Shown here: positions 1,930-54,673 of the stretch, piece after piece
Position numbering within the stretch: position 1 is the first letter of the stretch
How the letters are laid out: each line of letters opens with the position of its first letter
Origin: an uncultured Gammaproteobacteria bacterium
GTDB taxonomy: Bacteria > Patescibacteriota > Patescibacteriia > UBA1558 > UBA10009
Reading direction: 5' to 3'
Assembly (NCBI GenBank): GCA_964588165.1
Contig: CAZPMS010000005.1
Span: forward strand, 3,411 to 67,410
DNA length: 64,000 nt
Notes under the pieces: model-generated
Databases searched by the model: none
What the model saw: the letters and a program-made list of their open reading frames with translations, nothing else
What the model was told of the DNA's origin: nothing
Position numbers and translations under genes: made by a program

Positions 1930-2475
1930 ATGGCTAAAATAAAGCAAAAATTCATCAAAAAAAGCCTTATTATGCTGGATAAAATCCTGCCAGTATTCTT
2001 ACTGGTGGTTATTATAACCCTATCAATGCCACACTTAAGTTTGGCTTCTGGGTTAGTAGATGTGCCAGCTACTCCTCAATTACCATATATTGCCGGTAAA
2101 ATTGAGTACTTAAAGGCTTATAGTTATCATATTCCCAGATTACCCGGTACGGCTGAAAAAAGGGAAGCCAGATACACCTATAAAATCTGGATGACTGCTT
2201 ATAACAGTTTGCCTGGCCAAACTGATAGCACTCCTTGTATTACCGCTTCTGGCATGGATGTTTGTGAACGCGACCGTGAAGATATTATTGCTACCAACTT
2301 TTTAAGGTTGCCGTTTGGCACTAAAGTTAGATTCCCGGAACTTTATGGTTCAAAAATCTTTACTGTCCAAGATAGAATGAATTCCAGGTATTGGAAAAAT
2401 GCTGATATTTGGCTAAAAGATTATGCTGAAGCTAAAAGCTTTGGTAGAAAATGGACCACTATTGAAATATTTTAA
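1930..2475 (+). CDS. Secreted 3D-domain (MltA/RlpA-like double-psi beta-barrel) cell-wall-binding protein
   Basis: N-terminal TM/signal segment. The C-terminal region (TPCITASGMDV...IIATNFLRLPFGTKVRF) resembles the 3D/DPBB domain. Confidence 0.5.
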   Translation: MAKIKQKFIKKSLIMLDKILPVFLLVVIITLSMPHLSLASGLVDVPATPQLPYIAGKIEYLKAYSYHIPRLPGTAEKREARYTYKIWMTAYNSLPGQTDSTPCITASGMDVCERDREDIIATNFLRLPFGTKVRFPELYGSKIFTVQDRMNSRYWKNADIWLKDYAEAKSFGRKWTTIEIF

Positions 2476-2500
2476 ACTTAAAGTTGCTTAGATACAAAAA

Positions 2501-2526
2501 ATCCCAGATTTATCTGGGATTTTTTA
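2501..2526 (+). terminator. Rho-independent terminator (atcccagat..atctgggat + T5)
   Basis: Inverted repeat plus T-run after the stop of the 3D-domain gene. Confidence 0.65.
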
Positions 2527-2641
2527 ATCATTCTGTTAATAACTCTGTTAATAACGTGGTATTGCATTAATATATATACTATAATAATAAAATAAAGGTC
2601 GAATAATAAAATATAATTTATAAATAATAAATAAAAAAATA

Positions 2642-3178
2642 ATGAATAAAAAACTATTAGTAGCTATTTTTTCTATTATTCTTTTTGTAACTTTAATTTT
2701 TGTGGGCAGTGTATATGCAATCGGATATTTGGAAGTAAGCTTAAGCGATGACACGCCTCCCGGAGGCTTTATTTCTCCTACCTCCACCAATGTCGCTTTT
2801 GTTAGTGTAGATTTTACAAATACAGCCAGTAGTACCGAAGCCATTACGATTGAAGATATTGCTTTCAAAAATTATGGAACATCTTCCTCTACAAATCAAG
2901 TGCTATCTAGATGGTATCTCTATGATGATACGGGTCTGATCGCCTCTTCTACCGATTATCTTACCCCTAAAATAGCCGTCTTCTATGATATTAATTACGT
3001 CATTCCAACAAGCACTGTAAAAACCTTAACCTTTAAAGGAGACCTGGGAAATGGCGCAACTTCAAGCGAAACTATAATAGTCGGAATTAATAATGAAAGC
3101 TTTATCAATACCTCACCTACCAGCACCGAAATATTCGGAGAATTCCCAATTATAGGTAATACCTTTACTATTGAATAA
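2642..3178 (+). CDS. Secreted Ser/Thr-rich hypothetical protein
   Basis: 178 aa with an N-terminal signal/TM segment. The remainder is rich in S/T and predicted extracellular. No recognised domain. Confidence 0.5.
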   Translation: MNKKLLVAIFSIILFVTLIFVGSVYAIGYLEVSLSDDTPPGGFISPTSTNVAFVSVDFTNTASSTEAITIEDIAFKNYGTSSSTNQVLSRWYLYDDTGLIASSTDYLTPKIAVFYDINYVIPTSTVKTLTFKGDLGNGATSSETIIVGINNESFINTSPTSTEIFGEFPIIGNTFTIE

Positions 3179-3200
3179 TAGCATCAGAAAGCTCAAAAAT

Positions 3201-3228
3201 CCCCGGTAATCTTACCGGGGATTTTTTG
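3201..3228 (+). terminator. Rho-independent terminator (ccccggta-atct-taccgggg + T6)
   Basis: 8-bp GC stem plus ATTTTTTG. Confidence 0.7.
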
Positions 3229-3249
3229 ATTTGGTCGAGCTAAACTCGA

Positions 3250-3324
<75 letters not shown>

Positions 3325-3441
3325 ACGCTTTTTGGGCCACTTGCTGTGTCCGCCTTTGGCGGAGCTACGTGGCTATTTTGTCACCGTTGACTATAGCAAA
3401 GCTGGCTGTAAAAATCAAGAATAAAATGCTAAGATAACTTT

Positions 3442-3936
3442 ATGAAAAAAGCCTTATTAATCATTGATGTCCAAAATTATTTTATCAATAAATGGACCCA
3501 AAATGTGCCCCAAAAAATAGTTAAACTAATTGAAGAAGATGATTTTCCTATTATCATTTTCACTAAATTCGTAAATACGCCAGACAGCCATTTTGTTAAA
3601 CAATTCAACTATACAGAATGTACCAAGCCGCCTTATACCGATATAGTGGCTGATCTTTTACCTTGGGTTAAAAAGGATAACGTTTTTGTCAAAAATACTT
3701 ATTCTTCTTTTTTTGATTCTGAGTTTACCAACTATCTTAAAAAGAAAAAAATTGAGGAGCTGATAATTGTTGGGCTTGATACAGAAAATTGCGTGCTAAC
3801 AAATTCTAGGGCTGCTTTTGATAACGGCTATAAAGTTTCTGTGGTGGCCAACTGTTGCGGCAGTTCAACAAGTGGTGATGAAATGCATAAAGCTGCCTTG
3901 GAAATAATAAAAAATAATATAGGTGATGTAATTTAA
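3442..3936 (+). CDS. Isochorismatase-family cysteine hydrolase
   Basis: 164 aa. The LLIIDVQNYF ... IIVGLDTENCVLTNSRAAFDNGYKV pattern is typical of the isochorismatase-like fold, including the catalytic Cys region. Confidence 0.6.
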   Translation: MKKALLIIDVQNYFINKWTQNVPQKIVKLIEEDDFPIIIFTKFVNTPDSHFVKQFNYTECTKPPYTDIVADLLPWVKKDNVFVKNTYSSFFDSEFTNYLKKKKIEELIIVGLDTENCVLTNSRAAFDNGYKVSVVANCCGSSTSGDEMHKAALEIIKNNIGDVI

Positions 3937-6828: not shown

Positions 6829-6865
6829 ACTTGAAATTTAAAATTATAAATTTAAAATTTTTTAA

Positions 6866-8873: not shown

Positions 8874-10040
8874 TTAATCATATTTTAAATTTTGGGTCAA
8901 GTTAGCGTTTATTTTTTCTAAAGCCTCTAGAGGTTTTATTAAATATTTTGAGTAATTGTCTTTAGTTAAATTTTCTAATTGAATTGCCTTACTGACATTA
9001 AAATCGCCGATGGCGGTTCTTTTTAATTCTTCAAGAATTGCTCCAGTTCCAAGTTTTTGACCAATATCATATGCTAAAGTTCTAATATATGTACCTGTTG
9101 AACATTTAACCCTAAGATTGATGATTGATGATTGATGATCAAAATTTAATAACTCTAAATTATAAATTTCAATCTCACCTGGCTTTCGTTCCACTTCCTT
9201 ACCTTTACGAGCTAATTCATATAATTTCTTTCCTTGAATTTTTTTTGCCGAATACATCGGCGGTAACTGCTGTTGCTTACCTATAAAAGAATTAATGACT
9301 TCATTAATTTTTAATTTTGTTTTGTCATTTTGACTTTTAATTTTTGACTTTTGAATTTGACCAGTACGGTCATATGTATCCGAAGTCACTCCTAATCTAA
9401 CCTCTGCCTCATACTCTTTAGCTAAAACATCAAAAAGTCCAACCATTTTAGTTGCCTTGCCCACAGCACAAATTAACAGGCCAGTAGCAAACGGATCTAA
9501 AGTTCCGGTATGTCCAATCTGTTTTATTTTTAAGATTGACCGCAGTTTTGCCACCACATCATGCGAAGTCCAACCATCTTCTTTATCTATCAGCAAAAAT
9601 CCAGACTGGCTATCTTCAACAGACTTTCTAATTTTTTTACCTTTACAAACTTCTTCTTTAAATACTTCCAACCTTTCTATACTAAAAAATAGATTTGAAT
9701 TTGCACGTAATTCATTCAATTCCGCCAAATGGGATTGCTGGTCATAGCCCAAAGCAATCACTTGCGAATTTTCTTCCCTGATGATTTTATATGGATCTTT
9801 TTCATCACCCAAAACTAGTTTGTAGTGAGTAGGTTTTAGTGAGTAGCTTAATAGCTTTTTTAAATTTTCTAATCTTTGTTTTTCATTAAAAAATGGCTGT
9901 TTACCCTTGGCTTTAATCACATTCTTATCCCTAGCTATAACCACAACCAAAAAATCTCCAAATTCTTTGGCTTGTTTAATTAAATTGATATGTCCGGGAT
10001 GGATTATATCAAACGTACCTGCTATAAGAACTTTTTTCAT
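8874..10040 (-). CDS. truB: Fusion protein: N-terminal RibL/TagD-like cytidylyltransferase (FAD synthase-like) domain plus C-terminal tRNA pseudouridine(55) synthase TruB
   Basis: N-terminus AGTFDIIHPGHINLI carries the (H/T)xGH nucleotidyltransferase motif. The C-terminal half (GHTGTLDPFATGLLICAVGKATK ... CSTGTYIRTLAYDIG) is TruB. Contains an in-frame (gattgat)x3 repeat. Confidence 0.8.
   Translation of the reverse strand: MKKVLIAGTFDIIHPGHINLIKQAKEFGDFLVVVIARDKNVIKAKGKQPFFNEKQRLENLKKLLSYSLKPTHYKLVLGDEKDPYKIIREENSQVIALGYDQQSHLAELNELRANSNLFFSIERLEVFKEEVCKGKKIRKSVEDSQSGFLLIDKEDGWTSHDVVAKLRSILKIKQIGHTGTLDPFATGLLICAVGKATKMVGLFDVLAKEYEAEVRLGVTSDTYDRTGQIQKSKIKSQNDKTKLKINEVINSFIGKQQQLPPMYSAKKIQGKKLYELARKGKEVERKPGEIEIYNLELLNFDHQSSIINLRVKCSTGTYIRTLAYDIGQKLGTGAILEELKRTAIGDFNVSKAIQLENLTKDNYSKYLIKPLEALEKINANLTQNLKYD
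9116..9139. repeat. Heptamer tandem repeat (gattgat)x3.4 inside the truB domain. Encodes HQSSIIN on the minus strand.
   Basis: Seen directly. Shares a 23-nt identical string (in reverse complement) with 38896-38923. Confidence 0.8.
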
Positions 10041-10645: not shown

Positions 10646-12757
10646 CTACAGTTGGGTTTTTAATTTTTTAAGCTGTTTTATTTTATCTCTTAACTCGGCC
10701 GCTTTTTCAAATTCCAAATTTTCAGCAGCCAGCTTCATCTCATTTACTAAACCATTAACAATTCTTCTTAATTCATCTTTAGGAATAGTTTTGTAATCTT
10801 TTAATTCCTCCCTTTTTGTAGCCAGGAGTGACTTAGCAGACCTGGCTTTAATATCTTTAGGGCTAAACTTAAGGCTATCGCCTACTTCTTTTTCAATCGA
10901 CTTAGGTTTTATCTTATGTTCTTTATTAAAATCTTCTTGGATATGGCGCCTACGCTCCACTTCACCAATTGCCCGTTTCATGGAACCTGTCATCTTATCA
11001 GCATACATTATTACCCTGCCCTCTTGGTGACGAGCGGCTCGGCCCATGGTTTGGATTAACGAAGTTTCTGACCGTAGGAAACCCTCCTTATCGGCATCTA
11101 AGATTGCTACTAATGTTACTTCGGGTAAATCCAAGCCTTCTCGCAATAAATTGATGCCTACCAAAACATCAACCTTGCCCATTCTTAAATCCCTTAAAAT
11201 ATCCAAACGTTCTAAAGTATTTATTTCGGAATGAAGATAGTGGGATTTGATTTTAAGTTCTTTGAGATATTCACTAATCTCTTCAGCCAGCCTTTTAGTT
11301 AGGGTGGTTACCAAAACCCGTTGTTTGTTTTTAATAGTTTTCTTAATCTCTTCCAATAAATTATCCAGTTGATTATCAGTTGGCCTGATTTCTATAGCTG
11401 GATCCAATAAACCGGTTGGCCTGATAACTTGCTGGGTAACAGCCGATGATGGATTATGGATTATAGATTCTAAATCTTTCTTATCAACCAACTCCTTCAT
11501 CAGATTTCCGACTTTAACTTTCTTGGTCTTTACTCCGGATTGGCGATATTCATAAGCAGCCGGTGTAGCCGAAACATAAACTACTTTATTTATATGTTTG
11601 GCAAATTCAGCAAACTTTAAAGGGCGGTTATCCAGGGCCGAAGGCAGCCTAAAGCCAAAATCTATTAAAGTCTGTTTTCTGGATCTGTCACCGTTATACA
11701 TGCCGTTAATTTGCGGAACCGTCATGTGCGATTCATCAATAAACATTAAAAAATCGTCTGGGAAAAAATCCATTAAAGTTGCTGCCTGCTCTCCGGGCTT
11801 ACGGCCGGTTAAATACCTGGAATAATTTTCTATGCCATTGCAGTAGCCTACTTCTTCCATCATTTCCAAATCATAATTGGTTCGCTGCTCTATCCTTTGT
11901 GCTTCTATTAATAAATTTTTACTTTTTAAATATTCAACTCGCTCTTCCATATCTTTCCTTATTTGAACAAATGAACTTTTTAACCTTTCTTCCGGAGTTA
12001 CAAAATGCTTACCTGGAAAAATATCATACTGGATCATGGGTTTTGGATCATGGGTTATTCTTTTCCCTGTTATATAATCTACTTTTGATAAAATCTCAAT
12101 CTTATCACCATCAAATTCTATTCTGATGATTTGATTTTTCTCTTCCACCGGAAATACTTCCACTGTATCGCCTCTTACTCTAAAGTTGCCCCGATAAAAA
12201 CCTTCATCATTCCTAGTATATTGTAATTCAGTTAAGTTCCTTAAAAACTTATCTCTCTTTTTAATGTTGCCCACCTTTAATTTAATACTCATGTTTTCAT
12301 AATCAGTTGGCGATCCTAATCCATAGATGCAAGAAACCGAAGCTACAATAATAACATCTTTTCTGGTTAGCAAAGCATTGGTAGAAGCATGCCTTAAGCG
12401 CTCAATCTCTTCATTAATATCTGCTTCCTTTTCTATATAGGTGTCAGTAGAAGGCTTATAGGCTTCTGGTTGGTAATAATCGTAGTAGCTGACAAAATAA
12501 TGTACCGAGTTATTAGGGAAAAATTCCCTGAATTCTGAAGCTAGCTGGGCCGCCAAAGTTTTGTTATGGGAAATAATTAAAGTGGGTTTTTGGACTTTTT
12601 GGATAATATTAGCCATGGTAAACGTTTTACCACTTCCGGTCACGCCCAAAAGCGTCTGGTGCTTTTTGCCAGCTTCTATGCCGCGAATCAACTTCTTAAT
12701 TGCTTGAGGTTGATCACCCGTAGGTTTGAAATTAGATTTTAATTTAAAACTACCCAT
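10646..12757 (-). CDS. uvrB: Excinuclease ABC subunit B
   Basis: 703 aa with Walker A ([10 protein letters not shown]), helicase motifs and the C-terminal UvrB/UvrC interaction helix. Confidence 0.97.
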
Positions 12758-16150: not shown

Positions 16151-16194
16151 TTAAATTTACTCGCTACTAGCTATGTGCTACTAGCTAAAATAAT

Positions 16195-17480: not shown

Positions 17481-18773
17481 ATGAAAGAATTAATTAAAAA
17501 AATGTTACCGCCGTTTATCTTGAGCTGGTATCACAAAATACTGGCTCTTTTAGCTATGGCTGTTTATAGTAATCCATCAAATAAACTTATAGTTATTGGC
17601 GTAACCGGCACCAATGGTAAATCATCAGTAGTTAATTTAATTGGTGATGTTTTGGAGAAAACCGGCTACAAAGTTGCCTGGAGCTCTACTGTTAACTTTA
17701 AAATAGCCGGTAAGGATTGGCTGAATAATAAAAAGATGACCATGTTGGGCCGGTTCCAAACCCAAAAATTTTTAAAGCAGGCTGTCCAGGTAGAATGTAA
17801 ATATGCTGTTATAGAAACTTCTTCCGAAGGCATAAAGCAGTTTAGGCACCTGGGTATTAATTATGATATTGCCGTTTTTACCAACTTAACTCCGGAACAT
17901 ATAGAATCACACGGCGGATTTGATAATTATAAAAAAGCTAAAGGAGAACTTTTCAAACATCTAACTTCCAAAACTAAAAAAACCATTAGTGGTAAACAAA
18001 TTGATAAAGTTATTGTTGCCAATAATGACGATGAATATGCCCAATACTTTTTAAACTTTAAAGCAGATAAAAAAATTACCTTCTCTATTGATCAGCATTC
18101 TGACTTTAAGGCTACTGATGTAAAGCTTGAATCCAATGGTTCATGGTTCATGGTTCATGGTTCATCATTTAAAACCAATCTCTTGGGTAAAGTAAATATC
18201 TATAATTACTTGGCAGCCATTGCCGTAGCAAAAAGCCAAAACATTGATGATAAAAAAATTAAACAAGCCCTGCTGACATATCAAGGTATACCTGGACGGT
18301 TTGAGTTTATAAAAACTGACCAAGGCTTTAAAGTAATGGTAGATTATGCACCTGAACCGGAATCATTAAAACAACTTTATAATACTTTAAAAATATTTAA
18401 CTTTAATAAAATAATTCATGTATTGGGTTCTTGCGGCGGCGGACGTGATGTAAGCCGGCAACCTGTTTTAGGAAAAATGGCTGCTGAAAATTCTGATTAT
18501 GTAATTATAACCAACGAAGACCCCTACGATGATGATCCTCAAAAAATAATTGATAACGTAGCCACAGGCGCTGAAGCCAACGGCAAAACTTTAGATAAAG
18601 ATTTATTTAAAATTTTAGACAGACACGAAGCCATTAAAAAAGCTTTATCACTTGCAACTGATGACGACTTGGTTTTAATAACTGGCAAAGGTTCAGAACA
18701 ATACATTTGTGTAGCTGGCAACAAAAAAATCCCCTGGGATGACAGAGAGGTGGTTAGAAAGTTGTTAAAATAA
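17481..18773 (+). CDS. murE: Mur ligase family protein, MurE-like (UDP-N-acetylmuramoyl-tripeptide synthetase)
   Basis: 430 aa with the P-loop VIGVTGTNGKSS and the middle and C-terminal Mur ligase domains. Contains an in-frame (tggttca)x4 repeat. Confidence 0.75.
   Translation: MKELIKKMLPPFILSWYHKILALLAMAVYSNPSNKLIVIGVTGTNGKSSVVNLIGDVLEKTGYKVAWSSTVNFKIAGKDWLNNKKMTMLGRFQTQKFLKQAVQVECKYAVIETSSEGIKQFRHLGINYDIAVFTNLTPEHIESHGGFDNYKKAKGELFKHLTSKTKKTISGKQIDKVIVANNDDEYAQYFLNFKADKKITFSIDQHSDFKATDVKLESNGSWFMVHGSSFKTNLLGKVNIYNYLAAIAVAKSQNIDDKKIKQALLTYQGIPGRFEFIKTDQGFKVMVDYAPEPESLKQLYNTLKIFNFNKIIHVLGSCGGGRDVSRQPVLGKMAAENSDYVIITNEDPYDDDPQKIIDNVATGAEANGKTLDKDLFKILDRHEAIKKALSLATDDDLVLITGKGSEQYICVAGNKKIPWDDREVVRKLLK
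18137..18164. repeat. Heptamer tandem repeat (tggttca)x4 inside murE. Encodes GSWFMVHGSS.
   Basis: Seen directly. The same heptamer is repeated at 39311-39329 and once more at 39862-39876 inside the O-antigen ligase gene. Confidence 0.8.
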
Positions 18774-36092: not shown

Positions 36093-37562
36093 ATGAAATA
36101 CGGAAACTGGCTAAACCTCTGCTTTATTGTTAAAATAACCTTATTATTTATGGAACAAACTAAAAAAATCGCCCGCAACACAATTTGGCAGGTAATTGGT
36201 AAAATAATCGGAACTGCCCTTGGAGTTGTAACTATTGGTTTACTCACCAGATACTTAGGTACAGAAGATTTTGGCCTCTACACCACAGCCGTAGCTTTTA
36301 TGCAGTTTTTTGGCGTGCTGGTAGATATGGGCCTATATTTGATTTGCCTTAAAGAAATCTCAGCCAAGCCGGACAAAGAAAACTTTATATTAAGTAATAT
36401 TTTCACCATAAGAGTAATTTCAGCCATCATATTTATGGGCGGCGGTACACTGCTAATTTTCTTATTCCCCTACCCAATGGTGGTAAAACTTTCGGCTGCT
36501 ATTGTCAGTTTGTCATTCTTTTTCATGACGTTGGTACAGACTTTGACATCAGTTTTCCAAAAATATTTAAAAATGGGCCAAGTGGCCATAGCTGAAGTTG
36601 TTGGTAGGTTTGGTTTTTTAATTGTGATTCTGCTTTTTGTTTTTTATAAAGGAAATCTGCCAGCCTTAATGTGGGGCAATGTTGTAAATACCTTTATTTA
36701 TTTTATTATCCTTTGGTTTTTAATAAAACGATACGTAAAAATTAAATGGGCCTGGGATTTTGAATATTGGAAAGTGGTTTTTAAAAAAAGCTGGCCCATT
36801 GCCCTAGGCGTTGCTTTTAATTTAGTCTATTTTAGAGCTGATACTATTATCCTTTCTTTATTTAAACCAGCAACTGATGTAGGAATATATGGCGCCCCTT
36901 ACAAAATCCTGGAAATTATTGCCACCTTCCCCCATATGTTTATGGGGCTGGTTATGGCACCTCTAACTGCCGCCTGGATTGCCGGCAATTTAGATAAATT
37001 TAAAAACATTACCCAAAAAACTTTTGACTTTTTTATAATCATTCTGGTGCCGATGGTTTTGGGTACTCTACCGCTGGCTGGAGGCATTATGAAACTAATT
37101 GCTGGGGAAGAATTTACAGTTTCTGGTCCGATCCTTTCCATATTGATGCTGGCCACCGGTATTATCTTTTTAGGAATTTTGATGACCTATATAATTGTGA
37201 TTTTAGATAAGCAAAAAGCTATGCTTAAATATTTTTTAATAGCAGCGATCCTAGCTTTAATCGGCTACTTTATTTTTATCCCTAAATATTCTTACTTTGG
37301 CGCTGCCTGGGTAACGGTGGTTATAGAAGGCTTTATTGTAATAACCTCATGGTTGATATTTTATAAATATGCCAAAATTAAACTTTCCTTAAAAATCTTT
37401 TTCAAAAGCCTGGTGGCCGGATTGATTATGATGCTGGCTATTTACCAACTGCCTGGCTTGCATATTTTATTAAATATCCTAATTGGAGCTGTAATTTATG
37501 GCTTAATTATGATAATTACAAAAGGAATTGACAAAAAATTGCTTAGTGATATAGTCAAATAG
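36093..37562 (+). CDS. Polysaccharide/oligosaccharide flippase (MOP superfamily, Wzx/MurJ-like). The probable true start is the internal Met near 36150.
   Basis: 489 aa with about 12-14 TM helices and an N-terminal ARNTIWQVIGKIIG motif typical of Wzx-type flippases. Confidence 0.65.
   Translation: MKYGNWLNLCFIVKITLLFMEQTKKIARNTIWQVIGKIIGTALGVVTIGLLTRYLGTEDFGLYTTAVAFMQFFGVLVDMGLYLICLKEISAKPDKENFILSNIFTIRVISAIIFMGGGTLLIFLFPYPMVVKLSAAIVSLSFFFMTLVQTLTSVFQKYLKMGQVAIAEVVGRFGFLIVILLFVFYKGNLPALMWGNVVNTFIYFIILWFLIKRYVKIKWAWDFEYWKVVFKKSWPIALGVAFNLVYFRADTIILSLFKPATDVGIYGAPYKILEIIATFPHMFMGLVMAPLTAAWIAGNLDKFKNITQKTFDFFIIILVPMVLGTLPLAGGIMKLIAGEEFTVSGPILSILMLATGIIFLGILMTYIIVILDKQKAMLKYFLIAAILALIGYFIFIPKYSYFGAAWVTVVIEGFIVITSWLIFYKYAKIKLSLKIFFKSLVAGLIMMLAIYQLPGLHILLNILIGAVIYGLIMIITKGIDKKLLSDIVK
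37528..37555 (+). promoter_or_regulatory. Promoter TTGACA-16 nt-TATAGT embedded in the 3' end of the flippase gene. It is duplicated at 38121-38148.
   Basis: A 32-bp identical string ATTGACAAAAAATTGCTTAGTGATATAGTCAA occurs at both positions, each about 40-45 nt upstream of a small membrane protein gene. Confidence 0.45.
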
Positions 37563-38645: not shown

Positions 38646-40085
38646 ATGTTTTACTACCTTTTTATTATCATTTTCTACCTGTTATTTGCCTATCTTTGTG
38701 CTAAAAACATCCGCTGGGGTATTTATACAGTTGTAGCCTTACTGCCAACTTATTTGATAAGATATACTGTTTTTGGCATCCCAGGAACTTTACTGGAAGG
38801 CATGATCTGGATTTTATTTATTGTCTGGCTAATCAAATTAAAGCAGGAAAAAAACCTAAGCTTTAATCCTTTAGTTTGGATAAAAAATATATTTAATCAT
38901 CAATCATCAATCATCAATCATAATCCCGTCCCTGATAAACTCAAACTGCCCTTGATTCTATTCCTAATCGCCTCCACCTTCGCCACATTTATTTCCACCA
39001 ATCAACTGGCTGCAGCCGGTATTTGGAAAGCTTATTTTATAGAACCCCTGCTGTTTTTTATAGTTTTTATCTACACAATAAAAAACCCGGTCCACTTTAA
39101 AAAAGCTGTTAGATTTTTAGGGCTAACTGTTTTAGCTATTGGCGTATTTGCAGTAATTCAAAAACTGACTGGGGTGTTAATTTCTAATCCTTTTTGGGCA
39201 GACGAAGCTACTAGGCGAATAACCACCTTTTTCGGCTATCCTAATGCCAATGCTTTATTTGTAGCCCCTGTCTTACTTTTATTAATAGGAAACTTAATTT
39301 CTGATTATAGTTCATGGTTCATGGTTCATAAAAATAACTCGTTATCCATAAACCATAAACTCTGGTGGATTATCTATTATATTATTTGCATTATACTTGG
39401 CACACTGACAATCATTTTTGCCAAATCCACCGGCGGCCTAATCGGGCTCGTTGCCGGCTTAATCTTTTTCTTAATTTTTTATAAAAAAACTAGGTTATTT
39501 ACCTTACTGGCTATTTTGATAATAAGTGCCGGATTGAATTTTTCGACCGGGATTAAAAATAAAATAACTGATACTTTTGCTACCACTTCACAAACCCATT
39601 TACCCTTGGATGCTTCTGATATTCATATGAGATCACAGCAATGGCGCGAAGCTTCTCAAATGCTTATGGATACGCCTGTTTTTGGAGCAGGCTTGGCCGG
39701 TTACCAAAATTTAATGGTTCCCTACCACCAAAATCCGCATGTAGAAATCTATCTATACCCCCATAACTTTTTCTTAAACTTTTGGACAGAAACCGGCTTG
39801 CTTGGCTTAGTTTCAATTATTTGGATTTTATTTGTCTTCTTTTGGTTAGGCCATAGATCATGGTTCATGAATAATAAGAACAACCCAAAGCCCATAAACC
39901 ATAATCAAATATTGACTTTAACGACCAGCATGGCTATGATAACGCTCCTGGTCCACGGCCTGGTTGATGTGCCATATTTTAAAAATGACTTATCATTTTT
40001 ATTCTGGATAATTATAGGCTTGATGATAGTTATATATAATCAATCACGAATAAACACAAATGGTTCACCAATAACTCACAAATAA
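38646..40085 (+). CDS. O-antigen ligase / polymerase-like membrane protein (Wzy_C domain)
   Basis: 479 aa, polytopic, with a PHNFFLNFWTETGLLGLVSIIWIL motif region typical of WaaL/Wzy-like proteins. Carries three in-frame heptamer-repeat insertions. Confidence 0.55.
   Translation: MFYYLFIIIFYLLFAYLCAKNIRWGIYTVVALLPTYLIRYTVFGIPGTLLEGMIWILFIVWLIKLKQEKNLSFNPLVWIKNIFNHQSSIINHNPVPDKLKLPLILFLIASTFATFISTNQLAAAGIWKAYFIEPLLFFIVFIYTIKNPVHFKKAVRFLGLTVLAIGVFAVIQKLTGVLISNPFWADEATRRITTFFGYPNANALFVAPVLLLLIGNLISDYSSWFMVHKNNSLSINHKLWWIIYYIICIILGTLTIIFAKSTGGLIGLVAGLIFFLIFYKKTRLFTLLAILIISAGLNFSTGIKNKITDTFATTSQTHLPLDASDIHMRSQQWREASQMLMDTPVFGAGLAGYQNLMVPYHQNPHVEIYLYPHNFFLNFWTETGLLGLVSIIWILFVFFWLGHRSWFMNNKNNPKPINHNQILTLTTSMAMITLLVHGLVDVPYFKNDLSFLFWIIIGLMIVIYNQSRINTNGSPITHK
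38896..38923. repeat. Heptamer tandem repeat (aatcatc)x3.5 inside the O-antigen ligase gene. Encodes HQSSIINH.
   Basis: Shares a 23-nt identical string with the reverse complement of 9116-9139 in truB. Confidence 0.8.
39311..39329. repeat. Heptamer repeat (tggttca)x2.5. Encodes SSWFMVH.
   Basis: Same unit as in murE (18137-18164). A further single unit at 39862-39876 encodes SWFM. Confidence 0.75.
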
Positions 40086-40153
40086 CGCACTAATTTGTGC
40101 GTCATCTGTGAAAAATTAGTGAGCAACGGTGTTATCTGTATAATAAAAAGGAC

Positions 40154-40201: not shown

Positions 40202-40291
40202 GGAAGCGTGCCGGAGTGGTTTAACGGGACAGTTTCGAAAACTGTTGTGCCTTTACAGGCACCGAAGGTTCGAATCCTTCCGCTTCCGCCA
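40202..40291 (+). tRNA. tRNA-Ser (anticodon CGA)
   Basis: 90-nt cloverleaf with acceptor GGAAGCG/CGCTTCC, a long variable arm, T-arm GGTTCGAATCC and encoded CCA. Confidence 0.85.
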
Positions 40292-45172: not shown

Positions 45173-46546
45173 ATGATCAAAAATTTCAAAATATTCACAT
45201 TAATAATCTTAACAGTAGTTGTTAGTACTTCCGGTTTTTCTTGCAAATTATTCCCTTCTAAAGATGTTCCTGAATCTTTAACAAAAACCACTGAACTTAC
45301 CTATTGGGGAGTTTGGGATGATAGCGACTATTTAAAGCCGGTTATCACTGATTTTCAAGCACTGCATCCTAATATAAAAATTACTTATAAAAAATTCCGC
45401 TTCTCTGAATATGAACAAAAGCTATTAGAAGCTTGGGCCGAAGATAGGGGTCCGGATATTTACAGTGTTCCGGCTTCTTGGCTTAAAAAATACCAAAGCC
45501 GCATTACTCCCCAGCCGGAAAGTGTTAGTTTAGCCTTTAGGGAAGTTAAAAAAACTCTGGGCAAAACAGAAATCAATACTGTAGTACGATCGGTACCAAT
45601 TTTTAAAACAAATGATATTAAAAGCCAGTTTGTTGATGTGGTTTATGATAATGTAGTAATAGACAACCAAATTTACGGACTGCCGTATAGTGTAGATACT
45701 TTAATCCTCTATTATAACCGGGACTTACTAGACAGTGCTGGTTTAGCTACTCCGCCTGTTACCTGGACAGGAGTTAAAGAAGCAACTAAAGCTCTTACCC
45801 AAATAGACCAAAATAATAACTTAATTCAAACGGGCGTGGCTATGGGCACTTCGGATAATATTCCCCATGCTGTAGATATAGTTTCACTCTTAATGATGCA
45901 AAACGGCACAGTAATGGTAAATGCCAAGGGCCAGGCTGCTTTCCACCAGCCTGCTTCCGGAGAAAAAGGCTACTTCCCAGGGCAAGAAGCCCTTAGATTC
46001 TATACAGACTTTGCCGATCCTATTAAAGAAGTCTACAGCTGGAACAGCCGGCAACCAGATGCTTTAGACGCTTTTATTTCCGGTCAGGCCGCCATGATGT
46101 TTGGCTACTCCTACCATCTGCCGGTAATAAAAGCCCGGTCTCCCAAGTTGGATATAGGTCTTGCGCCAATGCCTCAAATCCAGGGCGCAGCTAAATCAAT
46201 TAATTACACCGATTATTGGGTAGAAACAGTTTCACATAAATCAAGGAGTGCCGAAATTGCGTGGGGCTTTTTAAATTTTGCTGCCAACCAAAATGAAGTA
46301 ACCAAATATTTAGAAAAAGCCAAAAAACCCTCTGCCCTTAGGTCTTTAATTATAAGCCAAAAAGAAGATCCGGAATTGGCTGTTTTTGCCAACCAAACTT
46401 TAACGGCCGAACACTGGTACAGAGGCAATGATGCTTTAAAAATGCAGGAAATTTTTGAAGAATTAATAGAAGATTTTCCAGATTCAACAGAGCCGTACAA
46501 ACTTTTGGAATATGCTGCTGCCAGAATTAACCAAACTTTAAAATGA
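45173..46546 (+). CDS. ABC transporter extracellular solute-binding protein (family 1, carbohydrate type), lipoprotein
   Basis: 457 aa. The signal ends in FSC (lipobox-like). Overall length and motif spacing fit an SBP_bac_1 protein. Confidence 0.6.
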   Translation: MIKNFKIFTLIILTVVVSTSGFSCKLFPSKDVPESLTKTTELTYWGVWDDSDYLKPVITDFQALHPNIKITYKKFRFSEYEQKLLEAWAEDRGPDIYSVPASWLKKYQSRITPQPESVSLAFREVKKTLGKTEINTVVRSVPIFKTNDIKSQFVDVVYDNVVIDNQIYGLPYSVDTLILYYNRDLLDSAGLATPPVTWTGVKEATKALTQIDQNNNLIQTGVAMGTSDNIPHAVDIVSLLMMQNGTVMVNAKGQAAFHQPASGEKGYFPGQEALRFYTDFADPIKEVYSWNSRQPDALDAFISGQAAMMFGYSYHLPVIKARSPKLDIGLAPMPQIQGAAKSINYTDYWVETVSHKSRSAEIAWGFLNFAANQNEVTKYLEKAKKPSALRSLIISQKEDPELAVFANQTLTAEHWYRGNDALKMQEIFEELIEDFPDSTEPYKLLEYAAARINQTLK

Positions 46547-47319
46547 CTGTGGTAAAAAAAAGTAAATTTTTAATTTTAAGCTTTTTAATTTTAAGCTTTT
46601 TAATTTTACCTAATATTTCTTACGCCCAACTTTTGCCGGCCTGCACAGCCACTGGCAATTGCGGCATCTGCGATATTATAGATACAGCAGTTAAAATATT
46701 CAGGTGGCTCTTGGGTATTTTAGGTGGCACCGCCTTGTTCTTACTTGTCTGGCACGGTTTTGGCTGGCTGACTTCTATCGGCAATAAAGAAAAAATAGAA
46801 GCCACCCGAAAAGCTTTACTAAGTACTGTTGTTGGCATAATAATAATTTTGGCCAGCTGGATTATAGTAAATATTGTTTTGGTAATTTTACTAACCCCGC
46901 CCGAAAGCGTTAATCCTATCCAAACGGTTTTTTCTAATTCCAACAAATGGTATGAATATTGCACCGGCGCCAATACAACCGTTTGCACCGGCAAAGGAGA
47001 GGGCTCTCCTTGTAGGCAAGGGCAATTTTGTTTAACCAGGTGCACTGAATGGGAAACAAAGGGAGAAGGCTCAACTAATCCAATTATACAATGTGTGGAT
47101 AAAAGAACTGGTATGGCAGAAAAATTTAACTGCGGCCTAACTGATTATTATGGACCACCAGATGGCGCTAAATTTGAAAGTGCCTGCGAATTTTGGTCAA
47201 CTCACCCACAATACGAAGATTACCAATGCCTAACAAGTTCAAACTGCACTACGGGTAAAATCCTAGGCAGTGAATATTGTACAAAGGCCGACTTAACCTG
47301 CTGTTTTCCAAATAATTAA
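46543..47319 (+). CDS. Pilin-like array member P0: signal peptide, two TM helices and conserved loop (GFGWLTSIGNKEKIEATRKAL), plus a Cys-rich (~17 Cys) extracellular C-terminal domain
   Basis: 258 aa. Overlaps the SBP stop by 4 nt. Has a 15-nt tandem repeat in the signal region and the same TM-loop-TM core as the ten downstream paralogs. Confidence 0.7.
   Translation: MTVVKKSKFLILSFLILSFLILPNISYAQLLPACTATGNCGICDIIDTAVKIFRWLLGILGGTALFLLVWHGFGWLTSIGNKEKIEATRKALLSTVVGIIIILASWIIVNIVLVILLTPPESVNPIQTVFSNSNKWYEYCTGANTTVCTGKGEGSPCRQGQFCLTRCTEWETKGEGSTNPIIQCVDKRTGMAEKFNCGLTDYYGPPDGAKFESACEFWSTHPQYEDYQCLTSSNCTTGKILGSEYCTKADLTCCFPNN
46567..46609. repeat. 15-nt tandem repeat (tttttaattttaagc)x2.8 encoding LILSFLILSFLIL in the P0 signal peptide
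   Basis: Seen directly. Confidence 0.8.
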
Positions 47320-52669: not shown

Positions 52670-54673
52670 ATGACAAAAATTACTAATTTCTTCAACAAAA
52701 ACCAAAAAAAGTTTCTTTGGTTCTTTATTATTTTCTATTTTATTGCTTTTTCCCTAATCTGCATTTGGAAATACTACCAGTTTGGCTATAATGGGCTGGA
52801 TCTGGCCATTTTTAACCAAGTTTTTTACAATAGTGCTCAGGGCAACCTATTCCAGTTCACTATCCACCCGGGCCTATATCTAGGCGACCATTTCGCCCTG
52901 ATTATCCCACTACTGCTGCCTTTTTATCTCCCTTTCCAGCACCCAATTAATCTTTTAATCTTACAATCTTTAATCTTAGCTCTCTCGGCCTGGCCAATTT
53001 TTTTAATAGCTAAAAATGTTCTAAGCGCTAAAGTGTGGCCATTAATAATAGCCCTGGCTTGGCTTTTAAATCCTTTTGTCCATAATATAAATTTATTTGA
53101 ATTCCACCTGCTGCCTTTTGCTATTTTCTTTTTACTGTTTACTTTTTATTTTTACCAGAAAAAAAACTTTTTGGCATTTTTATTATTTGGCGTTTTGGCC
53201 TTGCTGGTTAGAGAAGATGTTTCTTTGGTATTTTTTATGTTTTCTATTTTAGCTCTTTTTGAAAGAAGAAAACTAAAATGGATTTTAGCACCAGCTTTAG
53301 TTTCTATTTTATGGTTTTTAATGGCCATTAAATTCACCTCCTACTTTACCCCTTCTGGTAATTACAAATTTTTGTATTACTATTCCTGGTTGGGCCAAAG
53401 CCCTAGTGAAATGTTTATAAACTTTTTCGCCTATCCCCTAAATACCTTAAAGCATGTTTTTTCCTTTAATAATATTTTATTTACTCTAACCATGCTTTTG
53501 CCTTTTACATTTTTGAATTTGATAAAATCCCGTTACTTATTGTTGGCTCTGCCGATTTTTTTACAAATTATTTTAGGTGGCAGTTCTAATTCCACTATTG
53601 CTTTAAAGCTCCACTATACATCTTTATTTCTACCGGCCTTATTTATAAGTTTAATTTATGGCTTAAAACAATTATTAAGTCCGGATAATAACAAACGGCA
53701 TCTTATTTTTTTAAATAAATATAAAAAACTGGTTATAATAATTTTAACAGTAGCAACTGTTTATACTTGCTTAACTTTAGGGCCGGTGGTTCCTTTGGTA
53801 AAAGCCATAGCCAATGCTGATAACTTACAAGAATTTAATCAATTAAGGTCAGAGTTTGTAAAAACTATATCAAAAAATGAAAGCCTGGTTGCCACTTATG
53901 ATTTTTTAACCCCTTTATCGGGCAGAGAAAAAGTTTATTCCCACCATTATACTTTTATTGGTAAAATGCAATTTACTGATATAAACTATCAACCGCCAGA
54001 AGATGTGGAAACCTTTTTAGTTAATTATGATGATTTATTAACCTATGCCGTCCAGTTCCCCAACAGCAGCCAATGGCAAGCTTATTATAAAGAAGGTGAT
54101 AATAATTTAAGAAAATTGATTCAAGAAAGAAACTTAAAAGTTAATAAAATAGCTGACTCTTATGTGCTGCTTACAAAAAACGGCAATCCTGATATAAATT
54201 TATTTCAAAAAGAAAAACAGTTTTCCAACATAAAAAATAAACAAATTACTAATATTGATAACAAAATTGAATTTCTTGGCTGGAGCCCTATTACCAATTA
54301 CTCATTACCAATTACTCATTACCAATTACTCCCAATTTCCCTATACTTTAAGGCTTTAAATGAATTAGATGAAAATTACCAGTTAAAACTTTCTGTAAAA
54401 AATAAAAACGGGCAAATTGTCCATTCCAAACTTTACCCCTTAGCCTACGGCCTTTACCCAACTTCTGACTGGCAAACTAATGAAGTTATTAAAATTAACT
54501 ACTGGTTTTTAATGCCGGAAAAATTACCAAAAGATGATTATATAATTGAACTTGAGCTTTTAAGCTATAAAGGCTATTTAACACTTGATGGCATTAGATC
54601 CACTGTAATAAAAATTACCAAAGAAGAAGTTTTAAAGCCATCCATTCAATTAACTAATTATTTTCACCATTAA
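52670..54673 (+). CDS. DUF2079-like polytopic membrane protein (putative GT-C-type glycosyltransferase)
   Basis: 667 aa. The N-terminal YQFGYNGLDLAIFNQVFYNSAQG motif resembles DUF2079. About 10 TM helices plus a large C-terminal extracellular domain. Contains a 14-nt x3 in-frame repeat. Confidence 0.5.
   Translation: MTKITNFFNKNQKKFLWFFIIFYFIAFSLICIWKYYQFGYNGLDLAIFNQVFYNSAQGNLFQFTIHPGLYLGDHFALIIPLLLPFYLPFQHPINLLILQSLILALSAWPIFLIAKNVLSAKVWPLIIALAWLLNPFVHNINLFEFHLLPFAIFFLLFTFYFYQKKNFLAFLLFGVLALLVREDVSLVFFMFSILALFERRKLKWILAPALVSILWFLMAIKFTSYFTPSGNYKFLYYYSWLGQSPSEMFINFFAYPLNTLKHVFSFNNILFTLTMLLPFTFLNLIKSRYLLLALPIFLQIILGGSSNSTIALKLHYTSLFLPALFISLIYGLKQLLSPDNNKRHLIFLNKYKKLVIIILTVATVYTCLTLGPVVPLVKAIANADNLQEFNQLRSEFVKTISKNESLVATYDFLTPLSGREKVYSHHYTFIGKMQFTDINYQPPEDVETFLVNYDDLLTYAVQFPNSSQWQAYYKEGDNNLRKLIQERNLKVNKIADSYVLLTKNGNPDINLFQKEKQFSNIKNKQITNIDNKIEFLGWSPITNYSLPITHYQLLPISLYFKALNELDENYQLKLSVKNKNGQIVHSKLYPLAYGLYPTSDWQTNEVIKINYWFLMPEKLPKDDYIIELELLSYKGYLTLDGIRSTVIKITKEEVLKPSIQLTNYFHH
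54290..54331. repeat. 14-nt tandem repeat (attaccaattactc)x3. Encodes NYSLPITHYQLLPI, in-frame.
   Basis: Seen directly. Confidence 0.8.

Follow-up and report, generated by a model that had tools for sequence, protein, structure and literature searches.

Dispersed heptanucleotide repeats have reportedly been known since the STRR heptamers of cyanobacteria were described by Mazel in 1990. Heptanucleotides are reported to be the most abundant class of long simple sequence repeats (LSSRs) in most prokaryotic genomes, and polymerase slippage has been proposed to account for them (Mrazek 2007, as related in PMC4679880). In Calothrix, Nostoc, Xanthomonas and Beggiatoaceae, heptamers form dispersed families of one and the same unit; for the STRR, GGGNATC and TAACTGA families this recurrence is reported, with no known mechanism of dispersal (PMC4692102, PMC4679880). 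Two puzzles of heptanucleotide repeats are still standing: the preference for 7 nucleotides (nt) and the spread of one unit to many loci. Here we describe heptamer arrays placed inside conserved genes in a 64,000-nt stretch of contig CAZPMS010000005.1 (assembly GCA_964588165.1), called the window below, whose best homologues are found in Patescibacteria (Candidate Phyla Radiation, CPR), near Komeilibacteria and Kerfeldbacteria. With somewhat better than even confidence, we take these arrays to be heptanucleotide microsatellites in segments coding for loops and hairpins, shaped by slippage and by turnover of their units, with the reading frame acting as a 21-nt filter.

A search for perfect tandem repeats (period 4-24, at least 2.5 copies, at least 16 nt) returns only six hits in the window. 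Four of the six are heptamers. Their units form just two classes, AATCATC and CATGGTT; with the second read on the complementary strand (AATCATC vs AACCATG), two of the seven positions are different. Perfect period-7 arrays of at least 20 nt are expected 0.00 times in 200 third-order Markov simulations of the window, against four observed; periods 5, 6, 8 and 9 give zero arrays of comparable length. The arrays cited in an earlier note on this DNA, made from the sequence alone, are thus real and non-random, and the same units do recur in unrelated genes. All four perfect heptamer arrays are inside coding sequence, in the genes for TruB, MurE and a Wzy_C/O-antigen-ligase-like protein, with non-integer copy numbers of 2.9-4.3. 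AATCATC is present at two loci (9116 and 38895) and CATGGTT at three (18136, 39310 and 39858). Pfam agrees with the identities first given to the truB, murE, O-antigen ligase-like and DUF2079 genes.

The reverse strand of both units contains TGA, and every coding copy reads on the stop-free strand. Each unit therefore has a single translatable orientation, which is why the same peptides, HQSSIIN and SWFMVH, recur in different proteins; their coincidence, singled out in the earlier note, needs no special explanation.

The murE gene (17481-18773, forward strand) encodes a UDP-MurNAc-tripeptide synthetase of 430 amino acids (aa) with the domains PF08245 (Mur_ligase_M) and PF02875 (Mur_ligase_C); its best match among solved structures is the MurE 4BUB (E = 4.6e-54). 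Its perfect ATGGTTC array of 4.3 copies (18136-18165, forward strand, 30 nt) encodes GSWFMVHGS and lies at residues 219-228. In an AlphaFold2 model with a mean pLDDT of 91, the array is predicted to supply one strand (220-225) of a central-domain beta-meander and the turn at 226-227. SNGSWFMVHGSSFKTN, which the array encodes, can be aligned gap-free with SNGTTFNLQHSTYKTN of the orthologues: the net change in length is zero.

Among 120 homologues, this hairpin measures 18 aa in 105 cases, 17 in nine, 19 in one, 25 in four and 27 in one. Six hairpins thus exceed 18 aa, and in four of them the excess is exactly 7 aa, that is 21 nt or three heptamers. This 21-nt step from the 18-aa to the 25-aa form fits the earlier suggestion of slippage-prone sites under selection for frame maintenance. 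Three of the four extended hairpins are heptamer arrays in the DNA: (AATCCTC) x3.7 in L007, (AACCCTC) x2.9 in L008 and alternating GTCATCG/GTCATCA in L010 (L numbers designate fetched loci); the fourth, P0023, was seen as protein only. Hairpins of the base length (17-18 aa) are also 7-nt periodic in the DNA, for example L133 (ACCTTCA ACCTTCA GCATTCA ACCTACA) and L145 ((ATTCAAG) x3, then ATTCATG and ATTCATC). A second MurE site, a loop 12-15 residues upstream of the hairpin, holds array-coded insertions of 9-18 aa in L145, L155, L160, L178, L205 and L209. Apart from the arrays, the alignment of the 430-aa window protein begins only at residue 89 of the Thermotoga MurE 4BUB, so that most of the canonical N-terminal domain of MurE is absent.

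The TruB array is carried by a gene of 388 aa on the reverse strand (8874-10040) that joins a cytidylyltransferase-like domain to the tRNA pseudouridine-55 synthase TruB (PF01467, PF01509, PF16198), with homologues found in Patescibacteria. There, a perfect GATTGAT array of 3.4 copies (9116-9139, reverse strand, 24 nt; ATCATCA on the coding strand) encodes DHQSSIIN, residues 301-308, in the beta-hairpin immediately before the CS-G-TYIR motif. All 24 nt recur unchanged within the array of the Wzy_C gene at 38895-38921; the shared string had been put at 23 nt. Compared with its common form, the hairpin of the window is longer by 2 aa, and relatives read PQSSILN, HQSSLID or HQSPIIN at this place. 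At the DNA level, L218 has (AATCCTC) x2.9 at the hairpin site. The truB gene of L218 also holds a second, different perfect array, (GAAGATC) x4.6 at 1357-1388, about 180 nt upstream of the hairpin array. The N-terminal PF01467 fusion is shared by most of the Patescibacteria homologues returned, and in one ENA assembly the fusion gene is split into separate calls of 128 aa and 240 aa.

The third host gene (38646-40085, forward strand) encodes a Wzy_C/O-antigen-ligase-family membrane protein of 479 aa (PF04932) downstream of a Polysacc_synt flippase-like gene (36093-37562). It has three sites, all on the forward strand. At site 1, a perfect AATCATC array of 3.9 copies (38895-38921, 27 nt) encodes NHQSSIINH, residues 84-92; it is followed on its 3' side, after a 1-nt deletion, by a decayed unit AATCCCG, and Tandem Repeats Finder (TRF) stretches the array to 38925. 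At site 2, a perfect GTTCATG array of 2.9 copies (39310-39329, 20 nt) encodes SWFMVH and lies at residues 222-228. At site 3, 1.7 units, TCATGGTTCATG (39858-39869), encode SWFM, residues 405-408. All three are short stretches between hydrophobic helix-like segments, variable among relatives, and from the sequence they read as inter-helix loops. Heptamer-like peptides stand at these loop sites in several relatives; in L219 (ATCCTCA, ATCCTTA) and L220 (TCGGTCT, TTGATCT) the DNA confirms arrays at sites 1, 2 and 3. The C-terminal tail of the window protein (40027-40074, NQSRINTNGSPITHK) holds short traces of both units, AATCAATCA and AATGGTTCAC, which may be decayed arrays. More decayed copies of both units were sought in the window, with nothing convincing besides the loci listed here and these weak C-terminal traces.

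The orthologous loops of related genomes thus bear heptamer arrays of other units: two loops in MurE, the hairpin in TruB and three loops in the Wzy_C protein. The expectation that ortholog alignment would reveal lineage-specific insertions is only partly borne out. Net insertion is little or none in the MurE hairpin, at Wzy site 1 and in TruB (+2 aa), and the arrays themselves are not specific to this lineage, as the same sites in relatives carry arrays too. The SWFM peptide, encoded by the CATGGTT unit at three loci here, and both exact strings were not found in any other fetched homologue or in about 80 related loci.

Those loci, fetched around MurE, amount to 927 kb of related Patescibacteria DNA, in which we counted perfect arrays of at least 2.85 copies. 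There are 19 arrays of period 7, against one of period 6, three of period 8 and one of period 9. Periods 6 and 9 are frame-neutral and yet rare, which argues for a strong mutational bias to 7 nt. About 20 of 31 arrays in the relatives lie inside open reading frames (ORFs) longer than 150 aa.

We then scanned a broad sample, one genome per species, for (ATSAAYC) x3. The resulting counts are lower bounds from which no taxonomic frequencies can be derived, and all results from this sample hold among the matches listed. The same unit classes occur in Bacteroidota, Cyanobacteria, Planctomycetota, Verrucomicrobiota, Acidobacteriota and a few Patescibacteria, with AATCATC, AACCATC and AACCATG forming arrays in Cyanobacteria, Bacteroidota, Planctomycetota and further phyla. 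Many arrays are in an intergenic-like context, some in long ORFs. Array lengths of 6 modulo 7 (20, 27, 34 nt) account for 103 of 253 arrays, a five-fold excess, whereas lengths of 21 and 28 nt are under-represented. Unit-like flanks are present in 85 of the 103, the base on either side is the same in 76%, and roughly 10 have random-looking flanks. Most of the excess can be put down to growth of a unit with one changed base within an array that already existed, the mark of turnover by mutation plus slippage; across phyla, the majority of perfect arrays are embedded in this way in older arrays of a one-base variant. An insertion of fixed size was considered as the cause of the 20- and 27-nt excess and rejected, the perfect sub-arrays being nested in arrays of variant units.

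Taken together, these observations suggest how such arrays could come about. Replication slippage or local template switching would gain and lose units, with a strong intrinsic bias to 7-nt registers. Inside an ORF, a change would survive selection only if it adds or removes three units (21 nt), if the units are read on their stop-free strand and if the loop can tolerate it structurally. Cycles of point mutation, three-unit expansion and three-unit contraction would homogenise the array, and a loop could in this way be overwritten by a perfect array at constant length. Three or four units would be too short for frequent 21-nt slips, and a one-unit slip would be a frameshift, which selection presumably purges from murE and truB; the arrays would therefore act as fixed sequence and not as switches. 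Slippage, three-unit events and the purging of one-unit slips are what we infer from the arrays as they stand.

Several points weigh against this account. Slippage alone leaves the presence of CATGGTT at three loci and of AATCATC at two loci of the window unaccounted for, and it gives no reason for the 7-nt preference. Zero slippage events were directly observed, and the claim of stability is weak, the same-strain contigs being near-clonal. For a loop to be overwritten at constant length, an expansion must be balanced by a contraction, hence two events or more, both only inferred. Finally, of 204 pairs of arrays at one locus 27 share their unit, compared with 120 of 10,184 pairs from separate loci (p = 4e-19, among the matches listed, with only unit classes that the search pattern did not select), and to produce this enrichment, copying or a trans-acting specificity of some kind is needed. 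That one unit recurs in the manner of a family is, on this evidence, a general property of heptamer repeats.

The main rival explanation takes up exactly these points: arrays or short modules would be copied between loop sites by a templated or mobile process, and a shared unit would mean spread. We regard it as unlikely, though it is the strongest of the alternatives. The route could be an in-frame selfish micro-element, similar to Rickettsia palindromic elements or to the small dispersed repeats of cyanobacteria, or else ectopic gene conversion primed by microhomology. The window encodes RecA and RuvA, and the same-unit enrichment just described and the confinement of SWFM to three loci here both speak for copying.

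So does a 52-nt module shared by Wzy sites 2 and 3. Its first copy (39307-39358, forward strand), of the form TCATGGTTCATG-N22-CCATAAACCATAA, encodes YSSWFMVHKNNSLSINHK; the second (39853-39904, forward strand), with TCATGGTTCATG at 39858-39869 and CCATAAACCATAA at 39892-39904, encodes HRSWFMNNKNNPKPINHN. The two copies are 77% identical (direct-repeat family D1), and in both the exact TCATGGTTCATG and CCATAAACCATAA blocks are spaced 34 nt apart. The ends of the module are imperfect inverted heptamer arrays, with 10 of 12 positions matching as inverted repeats: (CCATAAA) x2.1 at 39346-39360 (forward strand) has the reverse complement GTTTATG, one base off the upstream GTTCATG. Inverted array pairs are also found in other phyla, for example in L029 and L051. 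The duplication of the module is a direct sign of copying between sites, within one gene only.

Beyond that gene, the case for copying weakens. The flanks of TruB and Wzy site 1, and those of MurE and Wzy site 2, share only a TTT beyond the array, and the conserved Asn-Gly-Ser codons of MurE, AAT GGT TCA, could have given rise to its unit on the spot. The 52-nt module occurs only twice in the 64 kb, both times in the Wzy_C gene, with no match in viral contigs or in the roughly 80 related loci, and its fold as a hairpin is weak and not significant (dG -6.5, z = -1.76). The copies come with no target-site duplications and no transposase, and in other related genomes both the units and the loci that carry them are different. 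The same-unit recurrence in this window is most likely due to short patches copied now and then from one array to another. That copying should go as far as an in-frame selfish micro-repeat system, propagating heptamer arrays between loop-coding sites by unit-specific templated copying, seems to us doubtful. If it did, templated copying would continually rewrite the surface loops of conserved and envelope proteins while keeping frame and loop length, and the system would be the coding-region counterpart of the STRR type of heptamer dispersal.

An altogether less probable alternative, raised with the first description of these repeats, is that they are contingency loci, in which one-unit slippage switches envelope genes on and off, the Wzy_C gene above all. 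Heptanucleotide repeats do drive phase variation elsewhere, as the (ATCTTTC)n repeats of Haemophilus hmwA promoters (PMC8262952), and the Wzy_C gene is an envelope gene with three array sites. However, murE and truB are core housekeeping genes, and the arrays have 3-4 units and sit mid-gene, not in the promoter or 5' coding region of a dispensable gene. The exact MurE, TruB and Wzy_C proteins are found on 8, 4 and 7 contigs, respectively, from several JGI, ENA and Logan assemblies; no copy-number, frameshift or other length variant of the arrays appears among these 4-8 contigs per gene or in 90%-identity clusters, although the same-strain contigs are 99.98-100% identical to the window in DNA, which makes this a weak test for copy-number variation. 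Only a contig break hints at instability: the 165,580-nt JGI contig Ga0118721_1000025 ends, going by its coordinates, 10 nt short of the array at 38895 (window position 38,885). It is equally explained by the 24-nt duplicate shared by TruB and the Wzy_C gene, which probably confused a short-k-mer assembler. Four independently assembled short contigs (L212-L215) also stop at one place, window position 40128, 43 nt past the Wzy_C stop codon; this may be a strain-variable junction upstream of tRNA-Ser(CGA) (40202-40291).

That HQSSIIN and SWFMVH would be functional motifs acquired convergently, as the same peptides in different proteins could suggest, is very improbable and effectively refuted by the perfection of the repeats at the nucleotide level: the DNA is identical over 20-24 nt, synonymous sites included, the peptides amount to no more than a heptamer read in its three frames, and the corresponding sites of orthologues encode other peptides. 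An artefact of assembly or sequencing, entertained from the start and brought to mind by the one assembly that breaks beside an array, is scarcely credible, since the sequence is identical in independent JGI, ENA, Logan and NCBI assemblies and related genomes have arrays at the orthologous sites. Two further candidates were dropped: a diversity-generating retroelement (DGR), as there is no pair of template and variable repeats, and a programmed-frameshift slippery heptamer, as the units do not fit X XXY YYZ.

Other repeats of the window are less regular or of another period. A 14-mer repeated three times (54290-54331, forward strand, 42 nt), in fact six heptamers alternating ATTACCA and ATTACTC, encodes ITNYSLPITHYQLL, residues 541-554 of the DUF2079 gene (52670-54673), beyond the DUF2079 domain delimited by Pfam. 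In the UvrB gene, a short imperfect array on the reverse strand (11445-11469; ATAATCC x2.3, then ATCATCG) encodes IIHNPSS within residues 430-438; TRF gives it period 7, 3.6 copies and 88% matches. The UvrB gene of L010 (GCA_964520395.1) has an in-frame (TTGGAGC) x3.7 array at 1679-1704, and adjoining it at 2432-3820 are genes for an RVT_1 reverse transcriptase and bAvd, a DGR-like pair. Imperfect 7-nt periodic tracts are also seen in two intergenic spacers of the window, at 6834-6860 (AAATTTA x3.9) and 16158-16187 (GCTACTA / GCTATGT / GCTACTA / GCTAAAA), so heptamer periodicity extends beyond coding DNA. The perfect 15-mer of 2.8 copies at 46567-46608 exists as first described, but it is not in the gene labelled P0: it belongs to a T4SS_pilin-like gene (46543-47319), where it encodes FLILS three times in a signal-peptide-like N-terminus, and it is an ordinary in-frame repeat of 5 aa. 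The cluster representative of that gene, P0249, begins downstream of the 15-mer, which leaves the translation of the repeat uncertain.

The setting gives these arrays some general use. In a gene-dense CPR genome, heptamer repeats are forced into coding sequence, and there orthologue alignments provide a built-in ruler (21-nt steps, constant-length turnover, hot-spot loops) from which their dynamics can be read. There is also a practical caveat: heptamer repeats make low-complexity 7-aa peptides in conserved proteins and can break short-k-mer assemblies.

Among described systems, Rickettsia palindromic elements (RPEs), which are in-frame miniature inverted-repeat transposable elements (PMC10969869), are alike in placing in-frame repeats at fold-compatible positions of unrelated conserved genes, and the 52-nt Wzy module resembles them in its inverted ends and its presence in two loops. 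However, RPEs are about 150 bp long, exist in dozens of copies and have a conserved peptide (PMC10969869), whereas the window has a 7-nt array and a two-copy, one-gene module with a weak hairpin. The (ATCTTTC)n repeats of Haemophilus influenzae hmwA are heptanucleotide tandems as well, slippage-prone in principle, and an envelope gene is among the hosts here; they differ by their 13-24 units, promoter location and polymorphism (PMC8262952), against 3-4 units located mid-gene, in housekeeping genes, with no variants seen. The TAACTGA repeats of Beggiatoaceae, Cyanobacteria and Bacteroidetes (MacGregor 2015, PMC4679880) are likewise a genome-specific heptamer family with stop-constrained orientation in ORFs, and translation of a few of their arrays gives 7-aa repeats (LSVISYQ), like those of the window. 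Yet every forward frame of TAACTGA contains a stop, and the repeat lies mostly just 5' of start codons, a position for which a part in regulation has been suggested (PMC4679880), unlike our units, which are stop-free on one strand and placed mid-gene.

The closest likeness is to the LSSR/STRR repeats, with tandem 7-nt units in about 3-5 copies, one unit at many dispersed loci and period 7 dominant. These families are mainly intergenic (PMC4692102, PMC4679880), whereas all four perfect arrays of the window are coding, in frame and at recurrent loop sites; their host, with a reduced Patescibacteria genome, is also unlike those described. The window arrays show all testable LSSR/STRR features except the usual intergenic location, a trait of the STRR, GGGNATC and TAACTGA families so far described that does not strictly define the class. 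In the literature searched, we found no description of in-frame heptamer arrays at loop hot spots for Patescibacteria. What appears new with respect to the known families is thus the in-frame placement of the arrays at recurrent loop hot spots of conserved CPR genes, together with the 21-nt quantum and the turnover of units at constant length.

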